Source: an uncultured Methanosarcinaceae archaeon
GTDB taxonomy: Archaea; Halobacteriota; Methanosarcinia; Methanosarcinales; Methanosarcinaceae
Assembly: GCA_963727895.1 (NCBI GenBank)
Contig: CAVSHT010000015.1
Location: 1 to 62,522, forward strand
Length of the DNA stretch: 62,522 nt
Direction of reading: 5' to 3'
Below are positions 2,656 to 62,522 of the stretch, one piece after another. The position numbers were made by a program, and so were the translations under genes. Numbering within the stretch: position 1 is the stretch's first letter; each line of letters opens with the position of its first letter. The notes beneath the pieces are model-generated. The model did not search any database, was not told the origin of the DNA, and saw only the letters and a list, made by a program, of their open reading frames with translations.

Positions 2656-2700
2656 ACATACTATTATATGTTTTACCAACTTATATAGTTTTTAGTAAAT

Positions 2701-4695: not shown

Positions 4696-5091
4696 TCAAC
4701 CCTGATTCCATATATAGTATTCAGCGGCTTCTTTACTAACATTTTCGATAGTAGACACAAAATATCCATCACTCCATAACGTATTTTCACCCCAATAATA
4801 TTTTTACAGGTATTCTTTTTGAGTTTTCCATAACCTAATAGTTGATTCTTGTTTCAACCTTCTAACAATTGCAAGAACACTAACTTTAGGTTCGCTCTTA
4901 ATCACGAAATGGATGTGATCTTTGTCTGTTTCCATCTCTAATATTTCAAAGTCGGATTCTTTTGAAATATCATATATAATTTGTTTAAGCTCTTCGCTGA
5001 TTGGTTCGAGTATCGTTTTCCGATACTTGCAAACAAAGATAACATGATACATTAACAAAAATTTGCTATGAGTTAGTGTATCGTATTTCAT
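4696..5091 (-). pseudogene. tnpA: IS200 Y1 transposase with in-frame nonsense codon
   Basis: DHIHF HUH motif; TAA at 4804-4806, after which the same frame continues KYYWGENTLWSDGYFVSTIENVSKEAAEYYIWNQG*, so the catalytic-Tyr helix is cut off. Confidence 0.9.
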
Positions 5092-5135
5092 GTTTACAGA
5101 TAAGTATAAGTATCTGTAAGTATATAATAAGTACT

Positions 5136-12326: not shown

Positions 12327-13448
12327 ATGTTGAAAGTGCTTCGGTATAGAATCTATCCTACAAAGGCTCAAAAATTAAATATGAATAATACTCTTGAGCT
12401 TTGCAGGTGGACGTATAACGAAACACTTGCACTCCGGAAAAACGCATGGGAATCAGAACAAAAGAAAATAGGTTACTATGATTCTAAGAAAATGATTCCT
12501 GAATGGAAGAAAGAAAAGCCTGAATTGAAAACTGTTCATTCACAGGTACTATAGGAAGTAGTCAAGAGAGTAGACCTTGCATTTCAAGCCTTTTTCCGAA
12601 GAGTGAAAACAGGAGAAAAAGCAGGTTATCCTAGATTCCGGGGATATGGAAGGTATGACAGTTTCACCCATACTCAGTCAGGTTTTTCTCTTGATTCTGA
12701 TAGATTAACATTGTCAAAAATAGGTGACATTAAGATCAAATTGCACAGACCAGTAGAAGGAGAAATTAAAAGACTCAATGTTCGTAAGATGCCTATAGGA
12801 AAATGGTTCGTTTCTTTTCTTGTTGAAACTGATGCTCCAATTGTATTACAAAATACCGGATTATCTGTAGGTGTAGACGTAGGTGTCAAGAGTTTCTTAA
12901 CGCTTTCTGATGGTAATTATGTACCTAATCCTAGATTCTTTGTTACAGAAGAAAAGTTTATGGCAAAAGTTCAAAGAAAGCTCTCCAAACTTGAAAAAGG
13001 AACACTTGAAAGAGCAAAGGCTTTAAAAGCTGTTCAACGTGTTCACGAAAGAATAGCAAACAAGAGAGAAGATTTTGTACAAAAAGTAAGTCTTGATCTT
13101 GTCAGAGCTTACGATTTAATTACTTTTGAAGACTTGAACATCAAAGGAATGATTAAAAACCACAAACTAGCAAAACACATAGTTGATGTTGCATGGAATA
13201 AGCTTGTAACTATCACGTCTTACAAGGCAGAATGGGCTGGTAAACGTGTAGAGCTTGTGAATCCATGTAACACATCCCAAATGTGTTCAGGATGCGGTGA
13301 AATAGTTAAAAAAGAACTATCAGAGAGAATACACAGTTGTCCTTTCTGTGGTCTTACTCTTGATAGGGATCACAATGCCGCTATTAACATTATGAGATTG
13401 GGATTACAATCTCTCCAGAATTCTGGTAGATGCCCGTCACTTCAGTGA
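12327..13448 (+). CDS. tnpB: TnpB with a single in-frame TAG at codon 76 (pseudogene or pyrrolysine read-through)
   Basis: HSQVL-TAG-EVVKRVD in one continuous frame; GVDVG, TFEDLN, DRDHNAA; zinc finger. Confidence 0.85.
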
Positions 13449-25708: not shown

Positions 25709-28600
<2,892 letters not shown>

Positions 28601-42673: not shown

Positions 42674-42797
42674 GGTTTAGGTTTTTAGATAGACATATAA
42701 CTTTTGTTGTATGCTGGAAAAAAGCAGTACAGAAATAAAGAAAAAAAGAAGTTCAAAATATGAAAGAGAGAAGAATTTTGGAAAAAGAAATTAAATC

Positions 42798-44326
42798 TTA
42801 TTTATTTGCTTTTTGAAAAGAGTTTAGTTGGAGTTCACAAAAATCAATTATTATAGGATCTCTGAGTTCTTTACCTATAAGAAGAGACATTTTGAGAAAC
42901 TCAATCGCTTTCGTTAGATCAACAAATTGCAGATAAATAATGCCAAGATTGAAAAGCCAACTAGCTTCCCCATGTCGATCACTTACTTCACGTGAAATTA
43001 AAAGAGCCTGTTCATAATATTCAATAGCTTTCTTGATTTCACCAAGACGATAGTAAGAGTTACCAAGGTTATTCAAGATGACTTCCTTCTCCGCGTCGGT
43101 CACCAATTTCACGTGAAATTAAAAGAGCCTGCTCATAACATTCAATAGCTTTAGCAATTTCACCAAGATCATGTATAGATATTACCGAGGTCGCCAAGGT
43201 AAGTTTCTTCTCCACGCCTATCACCAATTTCTCGTGAAATTAAAAGAGCCTGTTCATAAAATTTTATTGCTTTAGTAACCTCACCTAGATAGAAGTAGGA
43301 ACTACCAAGGTTGCTAAGGAGCCCACCCTCATTGCGCCGATCACCAATTTCTCGCGAAACTACAAGAGCCTGCTCATAATAGTCAATAGCTTTAGTAACT
43401 TCACCGAGATGCAGGTAGGAACTACCAAGGTTGCCAAGAAGTACTCTCATCGCTGTGTTGATCATCGACTTCATGTGAAATAAAAAGAGCACGCTCATAA
43501 TATTCAATTGCTTGTCTTCACTTCGCCAACGTCACTAGCAGGCATTCCCAAGTTTTCCAAGGACTTCGCATTCTCTACGCCGATCCCCTATCTGCCGGGA
43601 AATTTTAAGAGATTCTTGAAAATAGGTTATCGCTTCTTTAGGATAGCCTCTGAGCAATTTAATCATTCCAAGCTTGTAATTCCAGTAAGCAAACTTTTGA
43701 GAATCAGTTGTTCCTTTTTCGTGATATTCTTTCAATAGGCGAGAGTAATACTCCCACCTATCTTCAAGTTCCTTTTTGCTTAAGGATTCAAGCTCCGTGT
43801 CACCAAAATCAATAGCTGCTCTTACAACTTCTTCTTTTTTCATGTCAAATTCAAGAACGGTGGTACGCCACGAAAAAAAATCCGGAGCTTCCTTGAGAAG
43901 TTTTTGAAAAGAAAGACTATTAATCCAAATTATTACAGGATTTTCAATAGTCAGAAAGCGCTCTCGCATCATATTTAAAAGTAGAAGCGCTTCAGATTTT
44001 CCCTCACTGGTCTTTTTCTCTATTGCTTTATCCAACCCGAAAACGAAGAATGCTACTTTTCTATTTTCTTTCATATTTAGAGCATATAATTCCGATGCTT
44101 TCGCCTCGTTTAGCAACTTAAAAAGATCAAGAGAAGACTTACTCATGTTGATATCATAAATAAAAAGTTCGCCTTCCAACCTTCTAATAGTCTCCGTATA
44201 GAGCGCATTGCAGAGAACTGGTTCGTTGCAACGCACAAATACAATTGTAAGGTCTTCTGAGATACGTAGGAGAGTGACTAGTTTATCCAGTTTGTAAAGT
44301 TGTTCAGGTTCAAGCTCCACATTCAC
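42798..44326 (-). pseudogene. TPR-repeat protein with an N-terminal degenerate NTPase-like domain, frameshifted
   Basis: Three ORF fragments; repeats of about 120 bp encoding NLGxxYxxLGExxKAIxYYEQALxISREIGDRRxE; N-terminus has LNMMRERF and APDFFSW. Confidence 0.82.
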
Positions 44327-44451
44327 ACCTCTTTTGAAGGCCTACAACATTGATTTCATTTATTTCGTGTAATGCAAATTTGGATAAAAAATTTGGATAA
44401 TACAAAATCCAATTTACCTTCCCATCAGAGGATAAATTAACAAAAATAGAA

Positions 44452-45756
44452 TTAATCGCTGCTTGCATCCTGCTGTAGCAAATGTTTTTCTTCAAGAATG
44501 GTACGGACAATAGGACGCAGGTCACACCAGCTTCTCCCGTTTGTATATTCCAGGACGCTCAAATTGTGAAGCAGGCCTACAAGATCTCGATCCCTTTTTA
44601 TATTTTTGGAACGGGAAACTTCACGAAGAACTTCATAGTCTTCATCGCTGAGCTGAGCCTGATAGGTATTTTTGAGATCATTTACCACTTCTTCTGCAAC
44701 AGCCTTATCAATAACCGTTTTTCCTCTCGTAAGGGCAGTGACAGCCGAATCTCGAATAATTCTGATGTAGTCCCTCAGAACTCCCCCACTCATATCAATG
44801 ATATATTCAAGGGCTTCAAGTTCAAAAAGGTTAGAATTCACCCTTTTTGCGACGATCTCTTTCATGAGCGTACGCTCTTTTGATTCCCGATTCACACTAC
44901 CATCTGGTTCATGAACTTTGATATTGGGATACATGATATCGTCGCTGAAATTCATACGGATCTGTGTAAATCTATCCGAACTTTTCAATGAGATCGGAAA
45001 GGTATATATGATCTTGCACATTGGCTGAGATAGCTGTGTACCATGATTCCCAAATAAATCCAGGGCTTTATTAGGATCAGATTTTTACAGATTATCAATA
45101 ATTACAAGCACTTGCTTTCCGGTATATTCAATTTCAATAACAATATCATTGATGATGCTGATTAATTCTGAAACTCGAGGACCGATTTCTTTTCGAATTT
45201 CTTTTCGGGTCTCCGTTTCGTTTTTCATCCATGTGAAAATATTGATAAGAGCAGGTAAGCCAACTCCAAAACCAAGACCAGCCTTTTTACTGGAAATTAG
45301 ATTTTCAGTTATTGTCTGGCCCCATTTATTTGCTCGCTCAACTAAATCGCTTCTGAGAAATATTTTATTTACCTTAGAGCTTTCAATCAGTTGTGCGAGA
45401 ATAGAAAGAAGTACATCAGTATAATTGATATCATTCAGATATTGATATCATTCAGATCCAGTAAGTCCAGAACATTATAGTTTACAACGAAAAACTTATC
45501 ATTTAAATGTGAAACAAGCCGATTTAAAGCAGTTGATTTTCCTGAACCCCTGTGACCAGTGAACAGGACTTTAATGGGTTCTCCGGTCTCCAGTCCCAGC
45601 TCCAAGCGTGTCTTAAGCTTTGAAATCCATGTCTCGTTTTCCCCAATCTCAACATAGTATTTCTTCAATCTCAACATAGTATTTCTTCAGTTCCTCGTCA
45701 AAAAGCGCCTTATCGAGGTTAAACAAGTGATAAACAGATTTCAGATCATCAGTCAT
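44452..45756 (-). pseudogene. P-loop ATPase, frameshifted
   Basis: Walker A GHRGSGKST, Walker B-like LVIIDNL, SGGVLRD, LLHNLSVLEY; 22-bp and 17-bp duplications break the frame. Confidence 0.82.
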
Positions 45757-45971
45757 TACCGAGACTTCCTGTAAAATGCTTAATTTGGGTTCTGTAAATA
45801 ATCATTATTAGGAGTAATATTATAAGTATATGTACGTTTCCGGAACTGAAAGTAAAAGATGAATCAACTATAGAAAGACATAGTATTGAGATAAGGAAGA
45901 TAAAAAAAGTAAAGATTGACAGCTATAACCCTATGATTTAAGATATTGGAAACTTCCATTGACAAGTTTCT

Positions 45972-47325
45972 TCAAGTCAAAAAGCTGCCTGAAGAAAACG
46001 AAAGTTCAAAAGGAGCCGAAGATCGAACAGCTTCAACTATTGGATCTGCCTTTAGATCCTCAAGTGCAATATATCTGGCTCCGAGTGCACTGGAAATTTC
46101 CTGAGCAAGCCCAAACTTAATCATGCTGTTTTCAGTATCAATAACCGCAGATTGTATGTATTCTTTTCGGAACATAGAAGCTATTGTTTTTGTTTCCTGA
46201 ATAGGAGGTTCCCCGTTCATACTGACATTTGCCCTTCCATCAGAGATCAAAACCATAAAAGGACAAATACCAGGATCACGTTGAAGCTCTGTTTTTATAG
46301 TTTCATAACCTTTCATTAATCCTTGAGAAAGAGGAGTCTTTCCACCTGTAGGTAATTCCTGTAAATACTTTTGTGCCAGTTCTACACTGGAAGTTGGAGG
46401 CAAAACCAATTCTGCACTATTACCTCTAAAAGCAATAAGTCCCACTTTATCCCTTTTTTGATAAGCATCCATCAGCATTGAAAGAACTGCACCTTTAGAA
46501 GCTACCATCCGTTGCTGAGCCCCCATAGAACCACTGGCATCAACAACAAAAAGTACAAGATTGCCTATCTTTTTCTCCCGTATTTTAGTTCTAAAATCCG
46601 ATTCATGAATTATTATGGAGTTACCATTTTTTTCCCTTACGAGCTGGTAAGGTGCGGCTGCCCTCAATGTGGCATCAAAAGCAAGATCAATGTTTTTTTC
46701 ATAGGGAATTTCACTCTTTATATACTTTCCCTGTTTGGATTTTGTTAGAGTTTTGCTGCGCCGACCTGATCCATTTCGGTAATTCCTACGAAAATCAGTA
46801 GATAACTGCTTTATCTGATAACTTTCTCCTGTTGAAAAAAGAGCTTCAGAGGAAGCATCTGACTGTTCCTCATTATTATCTTGTGAATTATTTATATCAT
46901 CAGATTTCTTATCTTCAGGCTGAGCTTGAGATTTTCCTGAATGCTCATTATTCTCTTTATTTTGCTGCTCTCTTTTATTTTTTTTCTGATCTTTCTCTTT
47001 TTCCCTTTGTTTATCTATACTCTCATTCAGCTTATCCTGATTATTAGAAGGATTATCAAATGGCTTTTTACGCATACGATGTGAAAGAACTAGTTCTGCA
47101 GCTTCTTTTACATCTTCCTCAAAGACTTCAGTCCTCCCTTTTAAAGCTGCAAGTGTGATTGAAGTTTTCATCATTGTGATGTCCGCCCTGTGTCCATCGA
47201 CTCCCATATCAACACAGATCTGGCTAATCAATTCAAGCATATTATCTGAGATATTAACTTTAGAAAGCAATTCCTGCGCCCGGAGAATCTGCCCGCAAAG
47301 CTCGGACTCTGCAACCTGCCAGTTT
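45972..47325 (-). pseudogene. C-terminal half of a ChlD/BchD-like chelatase subunit (AAA lid, charged linker, vWA)
   Basis: VDGHRAD, DATLRAAAP, MIDAS DASGSM, GGKTPL, ISDGRAN; N-terminal AAA core absent. Confidence 0.88.
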
Positions 47326-48376
47326 TATAAGGAACCTTGACAGGAGAGGATTCATAAACCAGACCTCCTTCCGGAATCCAAGAATTGTTGGCATCAAGAT
47401 TAAGTTCAAGCCTTTCTGTGCTAATATTATATTTGGGATCATAAAATAACATGCCAAAAGAATCTGCTGTCCAGACACAGGAGTCAGGAATCGAATCAGA
47501 ACGGTTTACAGTAAGGGATGTGCCTTTAATCTGATACGATTTAATTTCATTTTTAGTCATATTGTAAGAACACGCCTGATACACATTATCAGCAACTTTG
47601 AAATCGATTAAATCATCGAGAATAGTGACATAATCTCCAGGCTGCATCTGTATAGGCACTCTATTTTTCAATACAATCTTTTTATCTGTAACTTCTGTGA
47701 CCTCAAACTTCCCATATTTATCTCCCACATTAATACTGATAGGTTCACTAGAATACTGATTTACGCTTGTAAGACTCACAATGGGATCTGTTCCATTAAG
47801 AACCCGACCAAGAGTTCCTTCAAGAATTGTACATTTAGTGCCGTTTATTGTTGTATTGAAGTTGAAATCTGAACCTTCTTCAAGAGACTTCGTAGTAATT
47901 GAAGTGGAATTTTTTTGAAGTTCAATGAGAGCAGAATTATTGTTCACTCCCTGAAGCACCAATTTGTAGCCATTTCCAAGATCGTAATCATTTCCCTGCT
48001 GAAGATCCCGACTTCCATAGCTAATCAGGCTCTCACTAAGCAAACCATTGTAAAAAACCTTATATTTTTTTCCAAAAAACGCAGTCGAGCCATAAGTTAT
48101 TTTCGAAGTGTATGTTGCATTTCCAGTATCAATAAGCCCATTTTCTGATAAATTAAGTTCCAACGACTCATAGTACGTACCAGAAGTAGTTGAATAATAA
48201 AATCCAGGGCAATTTTCTCCATTGAGAATTGTATGTTGTCCTGCTGAAATATTTACCCGAGGGCCACGTTGTTCAATAGCACTATTAGCAGGAATGATAA
48301 CAACTAAAACCATTGAAATAAAAAAAATAATGCAAAAATGGATAAAAGACTTGTTATTTTTGAGATATTTAATCAT
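47326..48376 (-). pseudogene. Methanosarcina-type S-layer-domain protein, C-terminally truncated
   Basis: Signal peptide, GPR start, GFYY...ESLEL, FKVAD, WTADSFGMLFYD...TERLEL duplicated-domain pattern; runs abruptly into chelatase sequence. Confidence 0.72.
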
Positions 48377-48743
48377 AAATTAAAAAAATAATGTAGCAAT
48401 ATATGTCAATTTCGTTTTTGACAAATAGAAAAGGAATTTATATAATAGTAGAGAAACTTTGATACTGAAAAAATACGACAAGATGAAGGATAATCTTTCC
48501 AAATATAAAGCATAAAAGATAATTGTAAAATAAGTAGGTAGATAATGAAATAATAATATAATATGAGAAAGATAATTTTGAAAATCAATAAATTATAAGA
48601 AAAAAATAGAAGACAATATATTGTTATCATAAAAGATTTAGATAAAATTTAGTATTCACAAATTTAATTTTATTATTACCATATATGGCAAAATAAAGAA
48701 TATTTTCGAAATAGTTATTAATTACTTACTATATTGGTCAATT

Positions 48744-49326
48744 ATGATATATAGAAAGGCTACAATATTCGGAATTGTTGCCCTGATTCTTATAGGCCTG
48801 ATAATATATTTTCAAATCACTCCACAAAAAAGTAGTATATCAGGAAAATTTCGAAAATTGTAATTTTGAAGGAGATCTTCTAAAATGTAAAGACGGTACA
48901 CTTTATCTTGATACTAAAAATTCGGCACAGACAGGGGAAGGGATCTGGAGTAAAAACGTGAGCCTGCCTCCAGAAAAAATTTCTTGGAAATGGGATGGAC
49001 AGGATCTTGATAAATTTAGTCTATGGTTAAAAGTGACATTCAGTGATCATAAATCTATTTACTATGTTGCAGCCGGGAGCAGGAATCCACAATCTGAAGG
49101 TGAATACTATCGGGATCAAGAAGATCGAAGACGCTTTTCACCATCTATTATAATTTCAGGAATTCCGATGAGTACGGTTGAAAAAGATCTCTTTGAAGAT
49201 TACGAAAAATATTGTGGGTCTGCTGAAAACATAAAGATTGAAAAAATAAGTGCAGGGTTTGGAGACAACAGTACGCTACATCAGAACATTTTGTGTATTT
49301 CAGACCTGAAGATGTATGAAAAATAA
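48744..49326 (+). pseudogene. Membrane-anchored hypothetical protein, one frameshift
   Basis: MIYRKATIFGIVALILIGLIIYF joins the 48958 ORF frame via a frameshift near 48843. Confidence 0.6.
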
Positions 49327-49353
49327 TAAAAATGTAATCATGGGAGTTTGGAA

Positions 49354-50887
49354 ATGAAAAAGAACAGTATCGTACTGGTGATTATATTTTCATTAATTTG
49401 TCTGAGTATGTTCAGGATGCACATCTTCACACATCGTGAATTCAGATCAAAAAGAAAATAGCAGTGGAGAAATCTCAAAAACAGAAATAGGTCAGACAAG
49501 TGATTAATTGAATCAAGGAAATATAAGCTCTTCGGAAAAAGTCTTCCCCTTACATTTACTGGGAGTATGACCTTGGAGATACAAATCCAGAAAATCTCAG
49601 TGAAGGAAAATCGAATGTTCAGGATTATGTTACATATTCCCTGGATGGAAGATCTGTAGCTGTTGGAACAGGAGAAAACCTGACAGTTGTTGATGTTCCA
49701 GACAAAAAAGTACTCTGGAAAAAGAACTTGGAAGGAAATGTTTCAGACATTTCATTTTCAAGAGACGGAAAATACTTGCTTGTAGGGGAAAAAAGTACTG
49801 ATGGGTACATTTATTCTCTGGATGCTGGCACAGGAGAAGAAATTCAAACAGTATAGAAGTGCAGATGACCTTGGTACCAGTACAAACCCAAAATATCAAC
49901 CCTGTATATACAAAATAACCGCTTCCAATGATTCCATATATGTTGCAGCAGGAAGATACTGGAAAGATACAGGATATGGACTGGCTTCAAGAGTATACAG
50001 ATTTAGTCCAAATGGCACTCTTTCCTGGAAACTCCCGAAAACAGAAAACTATGCCAGTAGTGTAAACTGGATTGACTCAAGCCTGGATGGGAAAAAAGTA
50101 GTTTTTTCAACAGGAGACTGGACAAATTCCCTTGAAATGGATGCAATGGTTTATTCTGTAGATGAAAATGGAAATCTGCGCTGGAAATACGATATTCCTC
50201 CTCTTAAACCTTATTTTGTTTCTGCAGCCATCTGGCACGGACTTGATATTTCAGATGATGGATCTATGATAACTGCCTACACAGGTGATGGAAGAAAATA
50301 CCTTTTTAATGACTCTAAGATGAAAAAATCTGGAGATGGCAGCTCTGAATGGAACCCTAAAGACTGGATATCCAATGTTACATCTCCAGAGAAAGTAGAG
50401 GGAAGTTATATCTATGCCTATGGAGAAGCTGCAAAAATTTCCAGTAAAAATGAGATACTCTACCTTACAGGAGCCACACTTCCTGCTTATTATCCCGATA
50501 ACATACCAGTGGCACATCCTCTTGAAAATTCTCTTGTAGCATGTGGGGTTGAAGAAGGAAACACTTCCTGGACCTATAATCTTGGAGGACGCTGTGCAGG
50601 GATCTTCTTTTCTCCAGATATGAGATTCTTTGTCCTGCCAGTAGGAAAAGACTCGTCTTCAGGCAATACTAATTTTCAAGGGATCTATGTCTTTGACAAC
50701 CAAAAATTGGGAGATGGAAATTCAAAGTTACTCTGGAAATTCAAAGTTACTCTGGAAATTTAATACAGAAGGTGTTGTTGTGGATGCTGCGATTTCTTCC
50801 GACTGTACAGTAGCGGCAGTTGAAGCTCCTCTAAAGCTTGAAAATGGAAACGTAACTGGGAAACACAGGTTAATAATTGTCAGGTGA
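49354..50887 (+). pseudogene. WD40/PQQ-like beta-propeller lipoprotein 1, frameshifted
   Basis: Signal/lipobox (GC), repeated SxDG and W-terminated blades; several indels including a 19-bp duplication. Confidence 0.75.
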
Positions 50888-50891
50888 GAGA

Positions 50892-52612
50892 ATGAAATGG
50901 AAAATTTTGATAATTCTGCTTATCTTAACTATAATCACTGCTGGATGTACTGAAAAAGCTCAGGATTCCGGAAACAGCAAAATAGCCCAGGGTTCGGAAG
51001 GATGCACAGAGTACACAGGAAATAAATAGTTCCGATGCCGGAGTGTCCATAGACTCGGTAGTATTTTCCAGGACTGGGGCTCTGATTACTCTAAAAAATG
51101 AGGCAAACATCTCACAGATAAAAATTAGCTCTGAAAATAATTAAACTGAATCAATAAATATTGAAAAAACGGAAAAACAAGCATTTGCCTCCTTTGACTG
51201 GACTCCTGAAGTTCAATACCAGTTTGAAGTGATAACAGACCATGGGAAAACCAGTTCTCTGGAAGTGTATGCTCCTGAAAAACCCGCTTTGAAAGAGGAG
51301 TATTCTATAAAACTTGAGGATGTAGATCCCGGATCTATTGAAAAAACTACAGAAAATGTAGAAGGTCTGGTAAAATTATCTCCTGACAGCAAGTATCTTG
51401 CTATCGGAACTCAAGGAGGTTCTCTGAAACTTATAGATCTTGCAACAGGTGAAAAAGTTTGGAAAAAACAGCTTGTTAAAGGCATAGCTGATGCAAGAAT
51501 TTCAGATATAGAGTTTTCAAAGGATGGAAAACGTCTTATTGTAGGAGAAGAGAGTCCTGATGCTTTTATTTATTGTTTTGATACGAATGGCACTGAAATC
51601 TGGAAATATGGAGCAGGTAAGGATCTGGGTTCAGATCTTGACCACATGCCAGCCATTAAAAAAATAAAACTGGATTCAAAAGGGAATATCTATGTTGCTG
51701 CCAGTAGAGCTTGCGGTTACATCGGATGAGAAATACAAGTATCTGGGAAAAATTTATTCCTTTGACCCTGAAGGCAACATGCGCTGGGAATTCCCAGAAT
51801 CAGAACTAATGGACTCTGGAGTTACATGGATTGATACAACCCCTGACGGAAAATACTCTGTTTTCGGCACTACCAACTTTGCAAAAGCAGACAAATGGAA
51901 AGATGGAACTGTACATGTTCTGGACGGAAATACCGGAAAAGAATATTGGAACTATTCAATCCAGCCACTTGAACCATTTTTTGACTATACTGCAATATGG
52001 TACAGTACCCAGATTACTCCTGATGGCAAAGATATAATAACCATGACCAGTGATGGACGAGCCTTTTTATTTAATAATTCCAGGATCATGGAAACTGGTT
52101 TCCCGGAAATAGAATGGCAAACAAACATTTCAACACCGGTTGTAGTAAGTGGAGTCCCTATTTACGGCAGTGCAAATTATGCATATATTGTCAACAACAC
52201 CCTTATTTTCTCAATAGGGAGCACTTTCTCCAAAGATAAGAACCAAAGATGCTCCAATAGAACATCCCAACGGAAACAGTCTTTTTGCCTATGATACTGA
52301 TGGCAACTTGCTGTGGAAATGGAGACTTGACGGCTATGCAGGAGAATGTGCACATGAATGACCGGTATCTTGTGATTCCGATAGCACAAAACCTGGTGAC
52401 TGAGGATAGAAGTGTTCACGGAGTATATGTTTTTGACTTATCAAAAAGCGGAGGTTCAAACTCTAAACTTGATCCAGATTTATAATACCAAAGGAATCAC
52501 AGTAGCTGCTGATATTTCTCCAGATGGCAAATATATTGCAGCCTTAGAAGCTCCTGCAAGACTTGATGACGGCACAGTGCTTGGAGAATATAAAGTGCAT
52601 ATTCTTACATGA
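50892..52612 (+). pseudogene. WD40/PQQ-like beta-propeller lipoprotein 2, frameshifted
   Basis: MKWKILIILLILTIITAGC lipobox; SPDSKY, TPDGKY, SPDGKY blades; paralogous to propeller 1. Confidence 0.78.
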
Positions 52613-52623
52613 GAGGAGAAAAA

Positions 52624-55600
52624 ATGAAAATTGTTTCAATAACGTGGAATTCCTACATTCCCACCCTCCTCAAAGCAGCCGACGATCTTGGTATAGAGCT
52701 TGAAGCCCACTATTCAAAGATTCTGGAAGATAATCCGGAAGAAGCTGAGAAAGTGCTATCTGCATGTGAACATGCAGACGCTATCTTTCTATATTATATA
52801 TCAAATCCTTTCTGGGAAGAGTTCTATGAAAAACTTGAACCATTAAAAACAAGGATACCTGTAATCTGTGTAGGGAGTGACCCTTCCTCATTGACTCTTT
52901 CTTCGGTGAAACTTGAGATTGCAGCTACATGTTTTTCTTACATCATATATGGAGGGCAGGAAAACTTTGGCAATATGCTGCGTTATATTTTAAAGGAAGT
53001 TTTGGGACGTGAGGTTGAAGCAAAACCTCCAGAAAAGATACCATGGGATGGGTTATATCATCCGGATGCAGAGAAAATATTCTCAAATGTTGAAGAGTAT
53101 CTCAACTGGTACGGACCTTTGAAAGATAAAACCGTGGGTCTGCTTATCTCCAGGACTTCCTGGGTAAACAATGAACTTGAGATTGAGAAAGCCCTGATAA
53201 AAAAGTTAGAAAATCTCGGACTTATCTGTTGTTCCTGTTTTTGCATATTCTTTGAAAGACGAGGAACTTGGAAGCAGGGGAATGGATGAGGTCATAGAGG
53301 ACTATTTCATAGAAAACGGCAGACCTATCATAGATTGCCTTGTAAAACTTTCTCCTTTCTTTATTGCAAGCCGTAAAACCTAAGAGAGAAGTACCTCATG
53401 CGCAGCAAAAGGCATAGAAGTCCTGAGAAAACTTGACGTTCCCGTATTCCAACCTGTGATTTCACATTATATGACTGTTGAAGAATGGCAGGAGTCAATG
53501 GGATTAAGCACTGAGATTGGATGGAGTGTAGCTCTACCTGAATTTGAGGGTGGAATTGAACCCATTATAATAGGAGCAGGTAAAAAAGAAGGAAATTACA
53601 TGGGGCGTTTTCCTATCGAAGACCGCTGCTCAAAACTTGCATCCAGAATTTCAAAATGGATCGAACTTCGGAAAAAGCCAGTCAACCAGAGAAAAGTTGC
53701 CTTTATCCTGCATAATAGACCCTGCACAGGGGTTGAGGGTTCGGTAGGAGATGCTGCAAATCTTGATTCCCTTGAAAGCGTGGCAAGAATACTGAACCGG
53801 ATGCAAGAGGCAGGTTATGACGTCAATCCTCCCGAAGACGGAAAAGCTCTTATTGAGACTATTCTCAAGAAAAAAGCAATTTCCGAGTTCAGATGGACTC
53901 CCATTAATGAGATTGTGAAAAATGGAGGGGTTCTGGCTTTTGTGGAAAAAGAGGAATATGAGAAATTTTTCAATACCCTGAGCCCTAAAGTCAGACAAAG
54001 AGTGATTGAGAGTTGGGGAAATCCTCCTGGAGAAGAAGTAAACGGTATTCCTGCTGCCATGGTCTACGATAACAAAATCGTTGTGACAGGAATACAGTAT
54101 GGAAATGCAGTGGTCTGCGTGCAGCCAAAAAGAGGATGTGCAGGTGCCAGATGTGATGGAAAAGTCTGCAAGATCCTGCACGACCCGGAAGTTCCACCAA
54201 CCCATCAGTACCTTGCAACTTACAGGTATCTTGAAAACACTTTTGGAGCCGATGTACTCGTACATGTGGGAACTCACGGAAACCTTGAGTTCCTGCCGGG
54301 AAAAGGAGTTGGGCTTTCAGAAGACTGCTATCCTGACATAAGTATCGGGACTATTCCTCATCTATATATTTACAACTCCGACAATCCTCCAGAAGGCACT
54401 GTTGCCAAACGCCGGAGCCTTGCTTGTCTGATAGACCATATGCAGACTGTCATGACCTCAGGAGGTCTTTATGAAAACCTGGCAGAACTTGACAGGCTGC
54501 TTGGAGAATACGAACAGGTAAAACACGATAAGGGACGGGCACATGCTCTCAAGCACCTGATCCTTGACGAGATTAAAAAATCGAATCTGGATTCCGAGAT
54601 AAAAGCTGATCATCAGACTCCTTTTGAAGAAATTATAAGAAAAGCACATGAAGCTCTTGGAAGGATAAGGAACAGTCAGATCCAAAATGGAATGCATATC
54701 TTCGGACAGATCCCAGAGGGCGAGAAAAAAGTTGAGTTCATAAACTCAATTTTGAGGTATGATGACCAGGGAAGTGTGGAGAACAAAGTTTCGATTAGAA
54801 GGTTGATTGCAGGACTTCTGGAACTTGACCTTGATGAAATGATCTCTGACCAGAGCCGGATTTCCAGAAAATGGAAAATCAAACGGACAGAGACTTGAAG
54901 AGATTGATTCTCTTTCTAAAGACTTTATAAGGACATTCATAAATAACCCTGAAAAAGAGCCAGCCTGGATAATCAAAGAGATTTTTGAAGGAAAAATCCT
55001 TGGAGAGCAAAATATCAATAGAGAAATAAATAACCTAGAAATAGAACCAGCAAGAATAATCAAAGAGATCTTTGAAGGAAAAAGCTTTGAAAAGCAGAGA
55101 ATCAAAGAAAAAAGCTTTGAAAAGCAAGAAATCAAAGATTTGAGCATAAATTACACATTTCTTCAGGATGCTGCTTCTATCTGCAACAGAATCCTTGACC
55201 TTGAATCCAGAATAGATGATTCTCTGGAAATTGAAGCTCTTTTTCACGGTTTTGAAGGAGGATACATTCCCGCCGGTCCTTCAGGTCTTATCATGCGTGG
55301 GAGAGATGATGTACTGCCAACAGGCAGGAATTTCTATTCACTTGACCCAAAAAAGATTCCAACAAAAGCTGCCTGGAGAGTGGGACAGCAGCTTTCAAAG
55401 GTTCTGATTGAAAAGCACCTCAAAGATGAAGGACGTTGTCCTGAGAATGTGGCATTTTACTGGATGGCAAACGATGTAATGTGGGCAGACGGAGAAGGAA
55501 TGGCCCAGATTATGAGCTTGCTTGGAGTTGAACCGATCTGGCTAAGCAATGGTCAATCTGAAAGGGTTCTCTGTAATTCCTCTTGAAGAGTTAGGTAGGC

Positions 55601-56601
55601 CCAGGATAGATGTTACTGTAAGAGTCTCAGGAATTCTGAGGGATAATTTTCCAAATTGCCTCGAAGTCATAGACGAAGCAATCCAGGCTGTGGCATCTCT
55701 TGATGAACCTGAAGATATGAATTATCCAAGAAAACACAGTCTTCAGATGATTGAAGAAGGAGCGGATTCCAGAGACGCTACTTTAAAGATCTTTTCAAGC
55801 AAACCCGGGACTTATTCAGCCGGAGTCCAGCTTGCAGTCTACGCAAGTGCATGGAAAGATGAAAAAGATCTGGCAGATATTTTTCTTTACTGGAACGGAT
55901 ATGCTTATGGGAAAAATGTAAACGGTAAAGAAGCCCACACCCAGCTTGCTTCAAACCTTAAAACTGTTGATGCTACCTTTAATAAAGTGGTAAGTGACGA
56001 GTATGACCTATTAGGATGCTGCTGCTACTTTGGAGTTCATGGAGGCTTTACAGCTGCAGCCAGGCAGGCTTCAGGAAGAGATGTAAGAGTTTACTTTGGA
56101 GATACAAGAGAACCTCAACATGTTGAAGTCAGGGATATGGCTGATGAACTTCGAAGAGTTGTAAGAGCCAAGCTGTTAAATCCCAAGTGGATCGAAGGAA
56201 TGAAACAGCATGGGTATAAAGGTGCACAGGATATTTCAAAAAGAGTTGGAAGGGTCTATGGTTGGGAGGCTTCTACCCAGGAAGTGGACGACTGGATTTT
56301 TGATGATATTACAAAGACCTTTGTGCTCAATGAAGAAATGCGCCGCTTCTTTGAAGAAAACAATCCCTATGCTCTGGAGGAAATGTCCAGAAGGCTTCTT
56401 GAAGCTCAGTCAAGAGGACTATGGGATCCTGATCCTGAGCTTCTTGAAGAGTTGAAAAAGTCCTACCTTGAGATAGAGAGCTGGATGGAAGAACTTGCAG
56501 GTGAAGGAGAATTTCAGGGTGGAGCTGTTGACATAGTTAGCTCTGAAGACGTACCTGATTGGAACGCGAAAATGCAGGAAATTCGAAAACTCCTCAAATA
56601 A
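52624..56601 (+). pseudogene. cobN: CobN/ChlH-family chelatase large subunit, multiple frameshifts
   Basis: VALPEFEG, HVGTHGNLEFLPGK, PEGTVAKRR, LPTGRNFY, GRPRIDV, LNPKWIEGM. Confidence 0.9.
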
Positions 56602-56616
56602 GAAAAAGGTAGTGGA

Positions 56617-58194
56617 ATGAAAAACATAAGCTTTTTTCCTCCTTGTACTCGTGTTAATTATACAGCCCGTAGCTGCACAGGTTCAGCAGGAGGATTTCAA
56701 ACCTGAAGATATGACCACATTCACAATTCAGGTTCCCCATGGAGTAGAAGGAAATGGTCTTGCAGTTGTGAGACAGCACACTCTCTGCATATCTTTTCTT
56801 TGAAAGCTATTATGACGGCAATATGAATGTGACAATGGAACTTGACTTACCGAAAGGTTTTGTGCTTCATGAGCCTTCAGTTAATTCATTTTCACTTCAT
56901 ACCGATTATGATGATTGGTATAAGCTTGTTGATTTTTATATACCTTCAGATACGCCCTGCGGAACTTACAATATAACTGCAAAGGCGGTTGTTGATGTTA
57001 AGGGAACAAAACATACTATTGTGCGTACAACCCAGCTTAAAGTTGCTTCAAAAAAAGAAGTCGAAAATGAAGTATCAGTATCCCAACTCATAGTACCATC
57101 AGATGAAGATGGAAATGGAGATCCAAGTCATCCTTCCAATACTCTAGTCATTCAGGAAACTTCCCCTGCACTTAAAAAGTTGCTGAAGGTTACGGACCTG
57201 AAGATCACAGGAAAATGACCTCACTTCAACCTTATGGGAATAGAACTTACCAATACCGGAAATAGTACAATTCCTGTCATAGTCACATATGATATTCTAG
57301 ACATAAAAACAGGTGAACCTGTAAAAGCGTTTAAACCTGATATTATGGGAATGAAAGCAGACACGTTGTGTTATGCCACTGCAACTCTTTCTCCAGGATC
57401 AAGTTCACTGATAAGCCTTCCCTATATATATCTCCAGATGCGATGGGAGGAGACTACCTTCTCAGAGTTAAAGTAAAACTTACAGGCAGCGACTGGATTG
57501 CAGTAACAAAAGATCAGAAAATTAACTGCAATTTCAAGGAACTGGGGACCTATAATAACTACGTTTACCGCTTCTTTACTTGGAATTACTGCTCTGGGCT
57601 TTTATTTCTCAAGATCCAAGAAGATAATGGACAGGTTTAAAACCCGCAATCTTGTACTAATTGCCCTTTTCGGCACAGTTTCTTTTGCAGCGATAAACCT
57701 GCCTATGACCATCCTGTGGGACTTATCCCATGCAATTTTCGGACCATTCAGTTTCCTGTTTACAGGACTCTTCAATGAGATTCTTCTTTACATGCTCATT
57801 GCCTCTCTTGTGGTCCTGATCCCAAAACCAGGAACTATAAGCCTTTTTATGATGGTCAGGTTTCTGCTTGGAGGTTTTATAACAGGAAGTTTCACCCCTA
57901 TAATTTTTATAACACTGTCAGTCAACGCGATAATTCTGGAGCTTATGTTGTATGCTGCAGGTATAACCGGCAAAAATCCAGCTCCAGATAACAGGTTCAG
58001 AATGGGAATTGTTTGCGGATTTGCTGATATGGTCAGCGGGTATGTGTCCTTCAGTGTCTGGATGGTACTCTACAGACTTTTTTACAGCGACTGGTACATA
58101 GCTGCAAATATTGATCGACGGGTTTCTCTACACTTTCATAGGAACCTGGTTTGGAATAAGTCTTGGAAATAGACTGAAAAAGGTGGTAGAATGA
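56617..58194 (+). pseudogene. Secreted Ig-like region fused to a C-terminal multi-TM domain (putative ECF S component), frameshifted
   Basis: Signal peptide, beta-rich extracellular part, then FKTRNLVLIALF...PKPG TM domain; directly precedes the ECF ATPase and T genes. Confidence 0.6.
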
Positions 58195-58321
58195 CAGCAA
58201 CTTTGGTCAGCTTTTCCTGGTCTTTGAAAGACATTACTCTGATGCCAGAGTTTTCGATCAAACATTTTTTGAAAAGGTTTGTGATCAAGCCCTTTTTGAA
58301 AAGACATGTGGTTGTGATACA

Positions 58322-60160
58322 ATGATAGAGATTAAAGATTTATGGTACACTTATCCAGGAAGATCGGAGCCGACTTTAAAAGGAGTCAACCTTAAAGTCG
58401 AAAAAGGAGAATTTGTTCTCCTCACAGGGCCTACTGGCTGTGGAAAAAGTACTTTATTAAAAACACTTGAACGGGATAATTCCTCATGAATCTGGAGGAC
58501 TATTTTCAGGTAGTGTGAAAGTCAAAGGGATAGAAACAACAGATTCAAACCAGATGGAAATCTCGAAAGAAGTAGGTCTTGTATTTCAGAACCCAGATGA
58601 CCAGATTTTTTCTACAACCGTTGAGGATGAAGTAGCCTTTGGACCTGAAAACCTCTGCTTTGAGCAAAAAGAAATTGATAAAAAGGTAGGAGAAGCCCTT
58701 CAAATAGTAGGGATGTCCGGTCACAGGCTGGACTCGACAAATTCACTTTCCGGTGGACAGAAACAGAGAATCTGCATTGCAAGTATGCTTGCAATGATGC
58801 CTGAAATCCTTGCCATGGATGAACCTGTAAGCCAGATGGATCCCGTAGGTACACACGAAGTCCTGAATACGGTAAGAGAACTCAACAGGAAAATGAAAAT
58901 AACTATTCTGCTGGTTGAGCACAGGCTGCACGAGCTTGCACCTTTTGCAGACAGAATTGTCATAATGGACGACGGAAAAATAGTCTTTGATCAGCCAGCC
59001 TCAAAAGCTTTTGATCATCTTGAGATATTTTACAGGCTTGGACTTAGAATTCCCGAACCAGTCGAACTCTGCCACAGCCTGGGAATCAAAGCCAGCCCTT
59101 TGAGTGTCAGTGAGGCTCTTGCTGTACTGGACAAAGAAAACGTTAAAGAAAATACTATACCTCAACTTCTTCGGAATCCAGAAAATACGATAATAACCAG
59201 TTCAAGGAAAGCATCCGTTGAAAATAAGTATATGGAATAATGCATCGGAAAACAATGTTCATAGAAAGAATGCATTGGAAAAAAATGCTCATAGAAAGAA
59301 TGCTCGGAAAACAATGTTCATAGAAATGATGCTTCTGAAAACAATGCCTCTATTATTTCTATTCAAGATCTGTGGTCTGGATATGAGAAAAACAAAATGG
59401 TACTTAAAGGACATAAATCTGGAAATCCGTAAAGGTGAAAGGGTTGCAGTTATGGGCACAAACGGCTCAGGAAAATCAACTCTGCTTTTACACCTTGCAG
59501 CCATTCTAAAACCAGATAAAGGAAGCGTGAAAGGTTTTTGGAGAGGACACAAAATCCAAAAATCCATACTCATTTGCAGGCAAGAGTTGGATTTGTATTC
59601 CAGAACCCTGACCTTATGCTCTTCTGTGATTCAGCTGAGGAAGAAGTCAAGGTTTGGACCTGTTCAGTTAAAGTACAGTAATATTGAGGAAAGAGCAAGA
59701 ACCTCTCTTGAAGCCATGTCAATTCTGAACCTTTAAGGTAGGACCTTCCTCAGGCTCTTGAGCAGGGGACAGAGACTCAGGACAGCTGTTGCTTCAGTAC
59801 TTTCCATAAATCCCGAACTTATTCTTCTTGATGAACCCACAACAGGGCAGGATAGGGTGAATATAGAACAGATGATGGATTATTTTCAAAAATAACAATT
59901 CGACATTGATTTTCTGCACACACGATATTGAGGTAGCCATGTCTCTATGCTACAAGAATCCTTGTGATGAATGAAGGGCAGATCATAGCAGATGGGAAGG
60001 GAAAAGAAGTTATAAAGAACACCGAAATCCTCAGAAAGGCCTCGCTTACCCAGCCTCCAGTTGTTGAGATTGCAAATCATCTGGGAATCGACGCCTTTTC
60101 AGTTAAAGAACTTGTGAGAAACGCTGACCTCCAGAAATGTTGAAGGGATGAAGTGTTAAA
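58322..60160 (+). pseudogene. ECF transporter double ATPase (A-A' fusion), frameshifted
   Basis: [23 protein letters not shown], second Walker A GTNGSGKS, DEPTTGQD; end approximate. Confidence 0.85.
59235..59350 (+). repeat. Degenerate 15/30-bp tandem repeats in the ATPase linker
   Basis: GGAAAACAATGTTCATAGAAAGAATGC-like units. Confidence 0.7.
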
Positions 60161-60175
60161 GGGGATGATATATGG

Positions 60176-61070
60176 ATGATAGGTGCCAGATCAATTGCAG
60201 AACCGACAATTAAAGATACGGTTATTCACAGGATGGATCCGAGGGCAAAGATTCTGATTCTGATATCAACTGCTTTTGTTGCTGTGACCCTGGATAACCA
60301 GAAGACAATGTTTTTGTTGTTTCTGATCGTACTTTCCGGATTTGCACTTGCAAGAATGCCGGCAATAAAGATCAAGACCCTGGCTTTATTGCTCATACTT
60401 TTGATCTGGGGAACTATTTACTCTCAGGCTCTCTTTTATTCTCAACTTCCGAGGACTGTGATTTTTACCATAATCAGTCCTGATTTTCCGGTTCTGGGTC
60501 GGTTGACAGACGGAGGGCTGTTTGTATATGAAGAAGGGCTCCATCACGGTGCAGTTCAGGGTCTTAGATCAGCTTCAATTCTTTCTCTGGGGCTATTGAT
60601 GTGCTGGACCACGGACTCAAGGGATATGTTAAACGGTCTGGTTGGGCTCAAGGTTCCTTACAGCGTGGCTTTTATGGTGATCACAGCAGTCAGATTTCTG
60701 CCAATAATAATCACCGAAGTAGCTACCGTGATAACAGTCCAGACGACTCAGGGGATTTAATCCAAAAAAACTTGGGTCAGGAATCATAAAAACATTACTC
60801 AATATATTGACCCCAACTCTCGCAAACTGCGTAAGGAGAACCGGAACTCTTGCAGTTTCAATTCAGAGTAGAGCTTTTCGGGCAAATCCTAATCGGACAT
60901 CTCTCAAAAAGCTAGAGTTTTCAAACATTGACAAAATAATGGTTGCAGTCTGTATTTTTATAGCTATAAGTATTGTTATCGTGAAGCTTATTTACAACAT
61001 GTACACAAGCGGGATTTATTATACTTCAGGTTTAAGGCCTGTTTATGCAATTGCAGGAGGGTACCTGTGA
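60176..61070 (+). pseudogene. ECF transporter T component, one frameshift
   Basis: IHRMDPRAK, AVRFLP, QSRAF motifs; frameshift near 60745. Confidence 0.85.
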
Positions 61071-61834
61071 TAGAAATAAGAAAATTATCCCGATACTTCG
61101 GAAACTTGGTTGCTGTGGATAATCTTAATCTTGATGTTGGAAACGAGATCTTTGGCCTTCTGGGCCCCAACGGAGCAGGCAAAAGTACAACAGTTATGAT
61201 GCTTACAACCCTGCTAAAACCCAGCAGTGGCACTGCAAAAATCTGCGGGTATGATGTCGTAACAGAGTCAAAAAAAGTAAGGTCAAAGATAAGTTATGTA
61301 CCTCAAGATATGGCAGTTGACCGGAAACTCACAGGCAGAGAAAATGTAATGCTTTATGCGAAACTCTATGGCATCCCTAATAGGAATTCAAGGGTAGATG
61401 AGGTGATTGAAATGATGGGGCTTTCAGATCGTGCTGGTGATCTTGTAGCAACATACTCTGGAGGAATGAGGAGGCGCCTTGAACTTGCTCAGGCCCTTGT
61501 ACATGAACCTGAAGTTCTGTTTCTTGATGAACCTACTATTGGACTAGATGTGAGTGGCAGAAAGAAGATATGGGAGCATATCAGGATGCTTAAAGCAGAA
61601 GGAATGATTATTTTCATGACTACTCATTATCTTGAAGAGGCAGAGAAATATTGCAACAGGGTTGCTATTATTGATAAAGGTAGAATTGCAGTTGTTGGTT
61701 CTCCTGAAAACCTGATAAGTTCCATAGGTGAAGATGCTTCACTTAATGACGTCTTCCTTGAGAATGTAAAAACCCCTGAGGAACAGGCAGGGTTTAATTC
61801 AACCCAATTTAGGAATCTTCTGAGGCGAAGATGA
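61067..61834 (+). CDS. ABC-2 (DrrA-like) ATP-binding protein
   Basis: GPNGAGKS, YSGGMRRRLE, LDEPTIGLD, TTHYLEEA. Confidence 0.92.
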   Translation: MIEIRKLSRYFGNLVAVDNLNLDVGNEIFGLLGPNGAGKSTTVMMLTTLLKPSSGTAKICGYDVVTESKKVRSKISYVPQDMAVDRKLTGRENVMLYAKLYGIPNRNSRVDEVIEMMGLSDRAGDLVATYSGGMRRRLELAQALVHEPEVLFLDEPTIGLDVSGRKKIWEHIRMLKAEGMIIFMTTHYLEEAEKYCNRVAIIDKGRIAVVGSPENLISSIGEDASLNDVFLENVKTPEEQAGFNSTQFRNLLRRR

Positions 61835-62522
61835 TGAGAGCAGTACTCTATTATTTTGAAAGGGACCTCCTAAAATGGCTAAGAGGAAAGGTTTCTGTAA
61901 TTTCTTCTCTCGTAATGCCTGCAGCCTGGCTGATATTTGTAGGGCTTGCCCTGCCAACAAAGTTTACGGATAATTATCTTCGAGTATATCACCCCTGGTA
62001 TTCTTGTCATGACTATGCTCTTTTCTTCACTTGCAGGGAGGGTCTCTTATGATTTTCGATAAAATACTGGGTTTTTTGAATAAATTCCTCGCCATGCCTT
62101 CACCACGAGAAAGCATGCTGTATGGAAAAATTCTATTTATCAGTGTAAGAGGCCTGCTGCAGGCAACTGTGATACTCCTGATAGCTACTCTTCTTGGGAG
62201 TAAGGATATTGAACCCGATGAAGATAGTTTTGATATATCTTACACTGTTTTTGTTTTCAGTATTTTTTTCTGCGCTCTCAACCATGATAGGACTGTACTT
62301 AAGTGATCATGACAGCTATTCAGCTGTGAACAGCATGATCAGCATGCCTTTATTCTTTACCAGCAGTGCACTTATGCCTTATGATGTCATGCCTGCATGG
62401 TTAAGGACTCTGGCCAAACTCAATCCGGTAAGTTATGCAATAGATAGTACAAGAACTCTGTTTGAAGGAGGAATACCTGTTCATGGGCTTATAAGCCTGA
62501 CAATAGGAGCCGGAGTTATGGT
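61831..62522 (+). pseudogene. ABC-2 permease, frameshifted, runs off window
   Basis: TM fragments, PGIL, MPLFFTSSALMP, NPVSYA motifs across frames. Confidence 0.8.

Follow-up and report, generated by a model that had tools for sequence, protein, structure and literature searches.

A CobN-type chelatase encoded with an ECF importer and surface propeller lipoproteins in Methanosarcinales: a possible B12-family uptake unit, broken in the assembly of an uncultured archaeon

Why do methanogens encode CobN-type class I chelatases, and what would such an enzyme do next to a membrane importer and a set of surface proteins? Such enzymes are widespread among methanogens, acetogens, and sulfate reducers whose cobalt and nickel insertion is carried out by class II enzymes. 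The role of CobN-type chelatases in these organisms was stated to be unclear in a 2025 structural paper on HmuS (PMC12583661). The question is raised here by one end of contig CAVSHT010000015.1 of an uncultured Methanosarcinaceae archaeon (assembly GCA_963727895.1). The analyzed window was this entire contig (C15; 62,522 bp), which belongs to a 3.67-Mb assembly of 19 contigs with 84% marker completeness and carries an archaeal rRNA operon; the closest relatives are Methanosarcina species. An earlier note, made from the sequence alone, had described a tetrapyrrole or metal scavenging system with an anchored protein, two beta-propeller lipoproteins, a CobN-like protein, an immunoglobulin-like (Ig)/S-component fusion, the A-A' and T components of an energy-coupling factor (ECF) importer and an ABC-2 exporter, divergent from S-layer and ChlD genes. 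Domain scans of the open reading frame (ORF) fragments from 45,972 to the contig end recovered all of these domains in the same order, confirming gene content and order. These genes form a single accessory unit found in Methanosarcinales, with three layers: extracytoplasmic, ECF importer, and cytoplasmic chelatase. Our preferred reading, held tentatively, is uptake of a B12-family compound with a corrinoid-type cargo, feeding a cytoplasmic ATP-driven chelatase formed by CobN and the ChlI-ChlD fusion (ChlI-D).

Relatives are referred to by G numbers for genomes and L numbers for fetched loci, the own assembly being G000. Intact orthologous operons were located in the complete relatives G004, G006, and G012, which carry the same eleven genes, all open and in the same order, and whose CobN sequences are identical letter for letter to the NCBI entries for M. 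barkeri 3, M. horonobensis, and M. mazei, respectively. The copy in the window is a poor specimen next to these three. In them the extracytoplasmic layer consists of the anchored protein (193 to 202 aa), the two propeller lipoproteins (506 to 516 and 576 to 584 aa), and the two Ig-like domains carried on the S component (Ig/S, 524 to 553 aa). CobN measures 1285 to 1334 aa, A-A' 576 to 596 aa, and T 297 aa, and the ABC-2 pump that ends the unit is made of an ATPase of 255 aa and a permease of 241 to 242 aa. The ChlI-D motor (686 to 692 aa) is encoded divergently from the CobN operon, beside an S-layer-type protein (585 to 608 aa).

By the earlier note's own criterion, a gene set not conserved as a unit would have refuted its reading; this outcome was not seen. 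The unit is kept in all 24 Methanosarcinales loci fetched, from Methanosarcina, Methanococcoides, and Methanoperedens: the Ig/S gene immediately follows CobN in 24/24 and, in the loci that reach far enough, the propellers are present in 21/21, T with the ABC-2 pair in 21/21, and the S-layer gene in 19/19. Of 18 congeneric genomes, 11 have both the CobN orthologue and the Ig/S gene, and neither gene was found in the other 7, three of which are 99% complete; the unit is thus accessory, gained or lost whole. The core of propeller, S, A-A', and T recurs in Firmicutes, Selenomonadales, Deltaproteobacteria, Omnitrophota, and Thermoproteota. Outside Methanosarcinales, 13 of 15 genome loci have this core; of 80 metagenome loci, many from gut samples, 54 show S together with a propeller gene. 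CobN and/or ChlI/D join the module in 5/15 and 14/80 of these loci, respectively.

The chelatase was assigned from the G004 orthologues. CobN (1334 aa) matched PF02514 with 1298 bits over profile positions 2-1088 of 1090, and the four CobN pieces of the window jointly span the same positions 2-1088. It also matched NF004646 with 2536 bits (cut-off 1468), and ChlI-D matched TIGR02442 with 905 bits (cut-off 779), so that both proteins are named cobaltochelatase by NCBI models. The CobN clade is 54 to 62% identical between bacteria and archaea and is always accompanied by ChlI/D where the flank reaches. The enzyme has no N-terminal hydrophobic segment and is read as cytoplasmic. In pairwise comparison CobN scored 579 bits with M. 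tuberculosis CobN, 572 with Synechocystis ChlH, and 353 with HmuS. Metal insertion is favored over removal because CobN is nearer to the chelatases than to HmuS and the AAA+/vWA partner is kept.

These values speak against the fullest version of the reading in the earlier note, in which the metal is taken out of an imported ring. In an HmuS/BtuS-like harvesting system, heme, F430, or a useless corrinoid would be imported, CobN would strip the metal, and the ABC-2 pump would expel the ring. HmuS of the Bacteroidota hmu operon is likewise a CobN-family protein encoded with a metallo-tetrapyrrole uptake system; it is a proven heme dechelatase, and its authors call the archaeal homologues unexplained (PMC12583661). 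In M. barkeri, CobN-like proteins termed BtuS changed with the iron or sulfur source (PMC10846266), although their locus tags could not be mapped to the present operon. The ABC-2 pair is also constant, in 21/21 Methanosarcinales loci that reach it, and this co-location is the only pointer to the export of a leftover ring. However, HmuS is membrane-anchored, requires NADH and a membrane fraction, and is contrasted with ATP-driven chelatases (PMC12583661), whereas the present CobN is more distant, lacks a hydrophobic N-terminus, retains its ATPase partner, and has no hmu genes nearby. No heme-uptake or heme-degradation gene was found in the annotated neighborhoods, and all cofactor-related neighbors belong to the B12 pathway. 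Harvesting of this kind is therefore considered very unlikely.

Additional CobN copies were noted in some relatives. A second paralogue, 48 to 49% identical, lies about 16 kb from the orthologue, and G028 has a third copy, 40% identical, about 19 kb away (G014:C1:925120-942688, G008:C70:3163-20555, and G028:C6:1721-22334), which suggests tandem paralogous chelatase clusters.

The transport layer was characterized by structure prediction and profile searches. The AlphaFold model of the Ig/S protein (predicted local distance difference test [pLDDT], 82.7) comprises a signal peptide, two Ig-like sandwiches, a transmembrane helix, and a helical domain. When the latter was compared by VIA-align with 48,161 chains, its top match was the ECF S component 5edl_A (Z 15.0, root mean square deviation 2.6 Å), covering 172 of 197 residues at model positions 339-525. 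Five further S components followed at Z 10.3 to 12.0, among them RibU (12.0), 4huq_S (11.6), and 4hzu_S (11.4); RibU, FolT-type, HmpT-type, and NikM-type proteins all fall in this range, with 4m5c lowest at 10.3. The predicted fold thus supports the Ig-like/S-component fusion proposed in the earlier note. A Foldseek search with the whole Ig/S model returned only Ig-like matches, the S fold becoming visible by VIA-align. No Pfam or NCBIfam family model, CbiM and NikM included, matched the Ig/S protein, and a profile of the S protein, searched through all chain sequences of the PDB with CbrT among them, found none that matched at E up to 10. In the ESM Atlas, leads for the S domain were all below 0.8, for example PF09819 on 12% of one cluster. 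One NCBI record labels an Ig/S member "MptD family"; NCBIfam searches on 16 family members gave no match to MptD or any other S-component model.

For the energizing part, the A-A' orthologue of G004 scored 452 bits with TIGR04520 (cut-off 315) and 430 bits with TIGR04521, also above cut-off. The T component belongs to PF02361 (CbiQ), and T and two EcfA-type ATPase domains are adjacent to S in every locus reaching them. Together, the S fold, the T component, and the fused EcfA-type ATPases make up a complete dedicated (group I) ECF importer. Invariant positions of the S domain are occupied by aromatic residues, Arg, Glu, and Asp and never by His or Cys, a composition that would suit an organic ligand better than a bare metal ion. 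Identity with the metal importers CbiMNQO/NikMNQO was rejected on the lack of a CbiM or NikM family match, the lack of invariant His or Cys, and the Z-score of 4m5c, which is below those of the other S components.

The two propellers are paralogues whose G004 orthologues are 33% identical. In the AlphaFold model of the second (pLDDT 85.9, predicted template modeling score 0.80), a lipobox is followed by a linker, a beta-sandwich, and the propeller. Its best 50 Foldseek matches were generic WD40/PQQ propellers, and BtuG was not among these 50, a list too short to speak against a closer relation. The analogy with BtuG drawn in the earlier note is limited to both being propellers. Alignment of the propeller and Ig/S profiles by hhalign gave a probability of 0.3%, and no shared N-terminal module was seen. 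The complex predicted for Ig/S (residues 26-525) and the propeller (150-576) had a score of 0.01 (mark, 0.32) and carries no weight either way. Two riboswitch-controlled operons from gut metagenomes encode, next after the propeller, an ABC protein of the exporter fold with ABC_membrane and ABC_tran domains (L099:13468-15186 and L129:13038-14792). This arrangement recalls the exporter-fold B12 importer of mycobacteria. In M. mazei, MM1999 and MM2000 were recovered among concanavalin A-bound surface proteins (PMC4350412) and, judged by gene numbering, would be the two propellers.

The link to B12 comes from the bacterial relatives. Cobalamin riboswitches were searched in 20 bacterial loci, 8 from genomes and 12 from metagenomes, the latter picked from 80 as long or varied. 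They are the one direct pointer to regulation, and it comes from bacterial relatives only. A riboswitch was found in 1/8 genome and 5/12 metagenome loci, and in five of these six (5/20 in all: L075, L088, L099, L107, and L129) it is located upstream on the operon strand. In L075, the riboswitch is followed by genes for a TonB-dependent receptor, S, A-A', T, and TonB; in L099, it lies about 100 nt before S in an operon that continues to CbiD and a corrin methylase, with CbiK upstream; in L107, ChlI and ChlD directly precede it. TonB-dependent receptors with TonB/ExbBD are neighbors in diderms, and the B12-related neighbors further include CbiZ (L067), BtuR (L072, L081, L088, and L114), and CobQ (L072, L079, and L081). 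L067 joins CbiZ, ChlI/D, CobN, and the module. No nickel gene and no NikR-type signal was found in any annotated locus. The riboswitches and B12-gene neighbors indicate that in bacterial relatives the transporter family belongs to the B12 regulon. Of the tetrapyrrole or metal link suggested in the earlier note, the B12 and cobalt side is thus borne out by the riboswitches, TonB-dependent receptors, BtuR, CobQ, and CbiZ of the relatives, and nothing found points to heme or F430.

In the archaeal unit, the surface proteins would bind a B12-family compound in short supply, most probably a corrinoid or a precursor of one, for import by the ECF module. CobN with ChlI-D would then spend ATP on inserting cobalt into this cargo or a pathway intermediate, or on correcting the metal that either contains. 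The corrinoid-type cargo is suggested by CbiZ, a salvage-only enzyme, as a neighbor, by capture proteins outside the membrane, by the conserved residues of the S domain, and by a precedent in Dehalobacter restrictus. There, an operon under a B12 riboswitch, with two CbiZ, a corrinoid ABC transporter, CobN, and Mg-chelatase subunits, was upregulated 46-fold on corrinoid starvation (PMC4285132). This "operon-2" resembles L067 in joining CbiZ, CobN, and chelatase subunits to a transporter; it differs in that its transporter is BtuFCD-like and not ECF, and the likeness is one of gene content.

Several observations weigh against this reading, and some of them suit the acquisition of cobalt (or nickel) instead. 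In such a system, the surface proteins and the ECF module would import a metal ion or small complex, and CobN/ChlI-D would be a high-affinity, ATP-driven chelatase that loads the scarce metal onto a tetrapyrrole alongside the class II enzymes CbiX/CfbA. B12 riboswitches commonly control cobalt importers, too, and none was detected in 9/9 scanned CobN-holding loci (L067, L068, L070, L071, L072, L086, L087, L095, and L100). We know of no B12 riboswitch in archaea. In L099 the module is embedded in a biosynthetic cbi operon that also encodes CbiK, CbiD, and the corrin methylase, a CbiM-PDGLE gene is divergent in L068, and 5/5 bacterial genomes with both the module and CobN, as well as the own genome, carry CbiD and are de novo producers by the early-insertion route. 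With such hosts and the cbi operon of L099, cobalt supply fits as well as salvage. The 12 metagenome loci scanned were moreover a hand-picked, nonrandom sample of the 80, and the nearest solved folds of the propeller are the generic ones named above. The own genome also has CbiX and CbiD, markers of early cobalt insertion, and the best CobG match (TIGR02435) in this 84%-complete genome reached 52.9 bits against a cut-off of 234.8; the host would thus make no known substrate of a late cobaltochelatase.

Against a metal cargo stand the S domain, which lacks both invariant His or Cys and a CbiM/NikM family match, and CbiZ, which adjoins the module in L067; for nickel, the annotated loci hold neither gene nor signal. 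To our knowledge, S components of the CbiM type need no propeller or Ig domains. A corrinoid-type cargo is accordingly favored, with the reserve stated at the outset, over cobalt or nickel, which we hold to be a rather unlikely cargo.

The same pathway context led to the rejection of CobN as a canonical late-insertion cobaltochelatase. The enzyme shares with the aerobic CobNST/CobN-ChlID systems a full PF02514 large subunit and an AAA+/vWA partner; in contrast to them, it scores equally with ChlH and CobN, is tied to an importer, and occurs in an early-insertion host. A more specific and improbable version of the corrinoid reading would be a late-insertion salvage branch of strict anaerobes, in which metal-free or wrongly metalated precursors at the level of (hydrogeno)byrinic acid a,c-diamide are imported from other microbes, CobN/ChlI-D inserts cobalt, and the product passes to BtuR/CobO and CobQ. 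Such a branch would explain the recurrence of BtuR and CobQ, the next two late-pathway steps, beside the module (L072, L079, L081, L088, and L114).

Among known B12 importers, one close in design is ECF-CbrT, reportedly an ECF-type cobalamin and cobinamide importer of Lactobacillus delbrueckii (Santos et al. 2018). The known importers are ECF-CbrT, BtuM, and BtuBFCD/BtuG (PMC6593275, PMC8123684, and PMC10404256). ECF-CbrT and the predicted CbrUVT share with the present system an S and a T component with two ATPase domains, and their genes are described behind cobalamin riboswitches (PMC6593275 and PMC8123684), as are 5 of the 20 scanned bacterial loci of the present family. In contrast, the S protein here has no sequence relation to CbrT (E up to 10) and bears two Ig-like domains and a signal peptide, the ATPases are fused, a propeller lipoprotein is an obligate neighbor, and a class I chelatase is attached. 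BtuB-BtuG of Bacteroides (PMC10404256) similarly places a lipid-anchored surface propeller beside a B12-regulated transporter, and a TonB-dependent receptor stands in the operon of diderm relatives of the present system. Here, however, the common ground of the propellers is the fold class only, the partner is an ECF S component and not BtuB, and the archaea lack an outer membrane. No description of the module with CobN was found in the literature searched, a search outside which most subscription journals and supplements lay.

The operon of the window, which the earlier note had called tightly packed, is not a run of open genes; breakage had not been mentioned there. Gene-by-gene alignment of the plus-strand operon with the intact G004 locus, excluding four alignment-end differences, revealed 36 frameshifting indels within 48.8-62.5 kb: 28 single-base insertions, 2 single-base deletions, 3 two-base events, one 19-nt duplication, and two deletions in the CobN insert. 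Eight of the nine genes are broken, the ABC-2 ATPase being the only open frame, and the operon extends past the contig end (Table 1). The lesions comprise a 2-nt deletion at 48824 in the anchored protein, three +1 insertions and a perfect 19-nt tandem duplication (50715-50760) in propeller 1, five +1 insertions in propeller 2, one at 60743 in T, and three in the ABC-2 permease. CobN is split into four open pieces, and its two deletions, of 26 and 4 nt, fall inside a repeat-rich insert of variable length. This insert (54939-55138) contains 87-nt and 30-nt tandem repeats, Lys/Glu-rich when translated; its length differs between species, and contigs of relatives skip 87 or 117 nt of it. The A-A' linker carries 30-nt repeats (59239-59346) and is 48+12 nt longer than in G004; relatives' contigs skip 76 to 118 nt of it.

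On the minus strand, a 1437-bp deletion at 47323-47325 truncates both the ChlI-D and the S-layer gene. It removes residues 1-236 of ChlI-D, i.e., the AAA+ module, leaving about 237-690 of 692 (AAA lid and vWA), and 707 nt from the C-terminal part of the S-layer gene, of which the first ~361 of 597 codons remain, and it fuses the S-layer remnant to the ChlD frame. The junction has no clear microhomology. Neither the deleted DNA nor the missing protein part was found elsewhere in the whole assembly, and there is no other ChlI/D gene in the genome. Farther upstream, between PolB and ChlD, 3.2 kb (42711-45970) absent from G004, G006, and G012 contain an AAA (STAND-like)/TPR gene on the minus strand that is broken into at least 5 pieces and bears two perfect tandem duplications, of 17 nt (45424-45457) and 22 nt (45638-45689); the PolB and pst genes directly upstream are clean.

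Table 1. Features of the Methanosarcinaceae contig considered in this analysis, with frameshifts counted against G004
Feature	Position	Strand	Basis
ChlI-ChlD fusion remnant, putative cobaltochelatase motor subunit	45972-47325	-	Pfam AAA_lid_2 + VWA_2
S-layer-domain protein remnant	47323-48409	-	Pfam S-layer PF07752; G004 orthologue 597 aa
Divergent intergenic region	48410-48752	.	4-species alignment
Small N-terminally anchored protein, 1 frameshift	48753-49316	+	
Beta-propeller lipoprotein 1 (lipobox), 4 frameshifts	49354-50887	+	
Beta-propeller lipoprotein 2 (lipobox), 5 frameshifts	50877-52612	+	
CobN-type class I chelatase large subunit, 5 frameshifts	52624-56601	+	PF02514 in four pieces
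Ig-like + ECF S-component fusion, 7 frameshifts	56617-58194	+	Predicted structure
Fused ECF ATPase A-A', 10 frameshifts	58307-60157	+	TIGR04520
ECF T component, CbiQ family, 1 frameshift	60176-61070	+	PF02361
ABC-2-type (DrrA-like) ATPase, 255 aa, open	61067-61834	+	TIGR01188
ABC-2 permease (DrrB-like), 3 frameshifts, cut by contig end	61834-62522	+	PF01061
TnpB/IS605-OrfB-type ORFs	44-1216; 1543-2679(-); 5076-6248; 6844-7833(-); 12603-13448		

Two origins of this damage were weighed. Of the 28 single-base insertions, the majority are probably errors in the assembly consensus; we read them as concentrated in a poorly supported contig end. When 89 long genes of a 434-kb G004 stretch were compared with their counterparts in the own genome, 33 proved frameshifted there, and the commonest lesion genome-wide was a +1 insertion that copies no neighboring base (20 events in the operon, 27 elsewhere). 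A single-base insertion near C7:96151, at about residue 441, splits the one MCM helicase gene that could be found in this assembly (G000:C7:94844-96947), and GroEL (C7:39063-40675) has two such insertions. As MCM is indispensable for cell life, at least part of the insertions must be false. With indels set aside, the ratio of nonsynonymous to synonymous substitution rates (dN/dS) of the broken operon genes against G004 is 0.05 to 0.19, the same as for intact G002 genes. Private replacements at sites invariant in up to 25 orthologues are not raised, either (7 in CobN compared to 9 to 14 in intact peers; 21 across eight operon genes together), and contigs from four metagenome runs, 90 to 99% alike, lack the insertions. 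Among the sequencing runs searched, none contained more than 0.21 of the sampled words, and no RNA run was listed.

The other origin, in which the operon is a true and recently dead pseudogene cluster with real frameshifts, is improbable. Several features speak for it and against errors alone. The frameshift density of ~2.5/kb is about sevenfold the ~0.36/kb elsewhere, a figure that sets aside three other lesion-dense genes. These three, encoding a sensor kinase, a NosD-like surface protein, and a transposase, are single genes of accessory type with cleaner neighbors, and the unit itself is accessory within the genus. The last 20 kb contain 4 perfect short tandem duplications compared to ~0.8 expected from the genome-wide rate, those in propeller 1 and the adjoining AAA-TPR gene among them, and the 1437-bp deletion is clean, its sequence missing from the whole assembly and no second ChlI/D present. 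On the other hand, 36 indels accumulated by ordinary decay would, as we estimate from indel-to-substitution ratios, bring hundreds of substitutions, and no such excess is seen in dN/dS or private replacements. Insertions outnumber deletions ~8:1, unlike the deletion bias of prokaryotes, and 20 of 25 scored single-base insertions copy no neighboring base, unlike slippage. Besides, the same lesion type splits the only MCM gene and hits GroEL twice, and the 84% completeness is reached in only 19 contigs. Consensus errors thus remain the preferred origin of the insertions, whereas a few larger lesions, namely the 1437-bp deletion and the 19-nt duplication, may be genuine events, in which case the chelatase motor is dead in this strain.

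Inspection by eye showed no motif shared by the sequences flanking the insertions. One window-private deletion, of 1 nt at 26959, interrupts a conserved stretch of the 23S rRNA; no indel of the 16S rRNA is private, and such sites are too few to gauge an error rate. The NosD-like gene, which encodes a parallel beta-helix surface protein (G000:C7:125649-128999), has 11 frameshifting indels, counting inserted stretches of 620 and 68 nt that we would guess to be one insertion sequence-type insertion. The single-base calls of the assembly are untrustworthy, and pseudogene counts and completeness figures taken from it would be misleading.

In the intergenic region between the divergent gene sets, a block conserved in 4 species just upstream of the first operon gene, around TTTCGAAATATTTATTAA, may be a BRE/TATA-like promoter by its sequence; the alignment of this upstream region revealed no operator besides it. 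The anchored protein belongs to no known family, its G004 orthologue having no Pfam or NCBIfam match, and the ABC-2 ATPase orthologue of G004 scored 313.0 bits with TIGR01188, just over the cut-off of 312.45. As the earlier note had stated, no other cobalamin-synthesis gene is in view: scans of 20 larger ORFs elsewhere in the window gave none (17 in 1-39 kb, plus 44-1216, 3270-4610, and 39878-42673). The first 13.5 kb contain five TnpB/IS605-OrfB-type ORFs with OrfB_IS605 and Cas12f1-like TNB domains, of which two agree in length (390 aa) and start codon and are likely copies of one element.

The useful part of the finding is the archaeal link of the transporter module to CobN. With one CobN clade tied to an ECF importer family that stands under B12 riboswitches in bacteria, an open annotation problem becomes assayable, and genetically tractable Methanosarcina species carry an intact copy. 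If the late-insertion salvage branch were true, the orphan CobN paralogues of methanogens and other anaerobes would gain a defined substrate.

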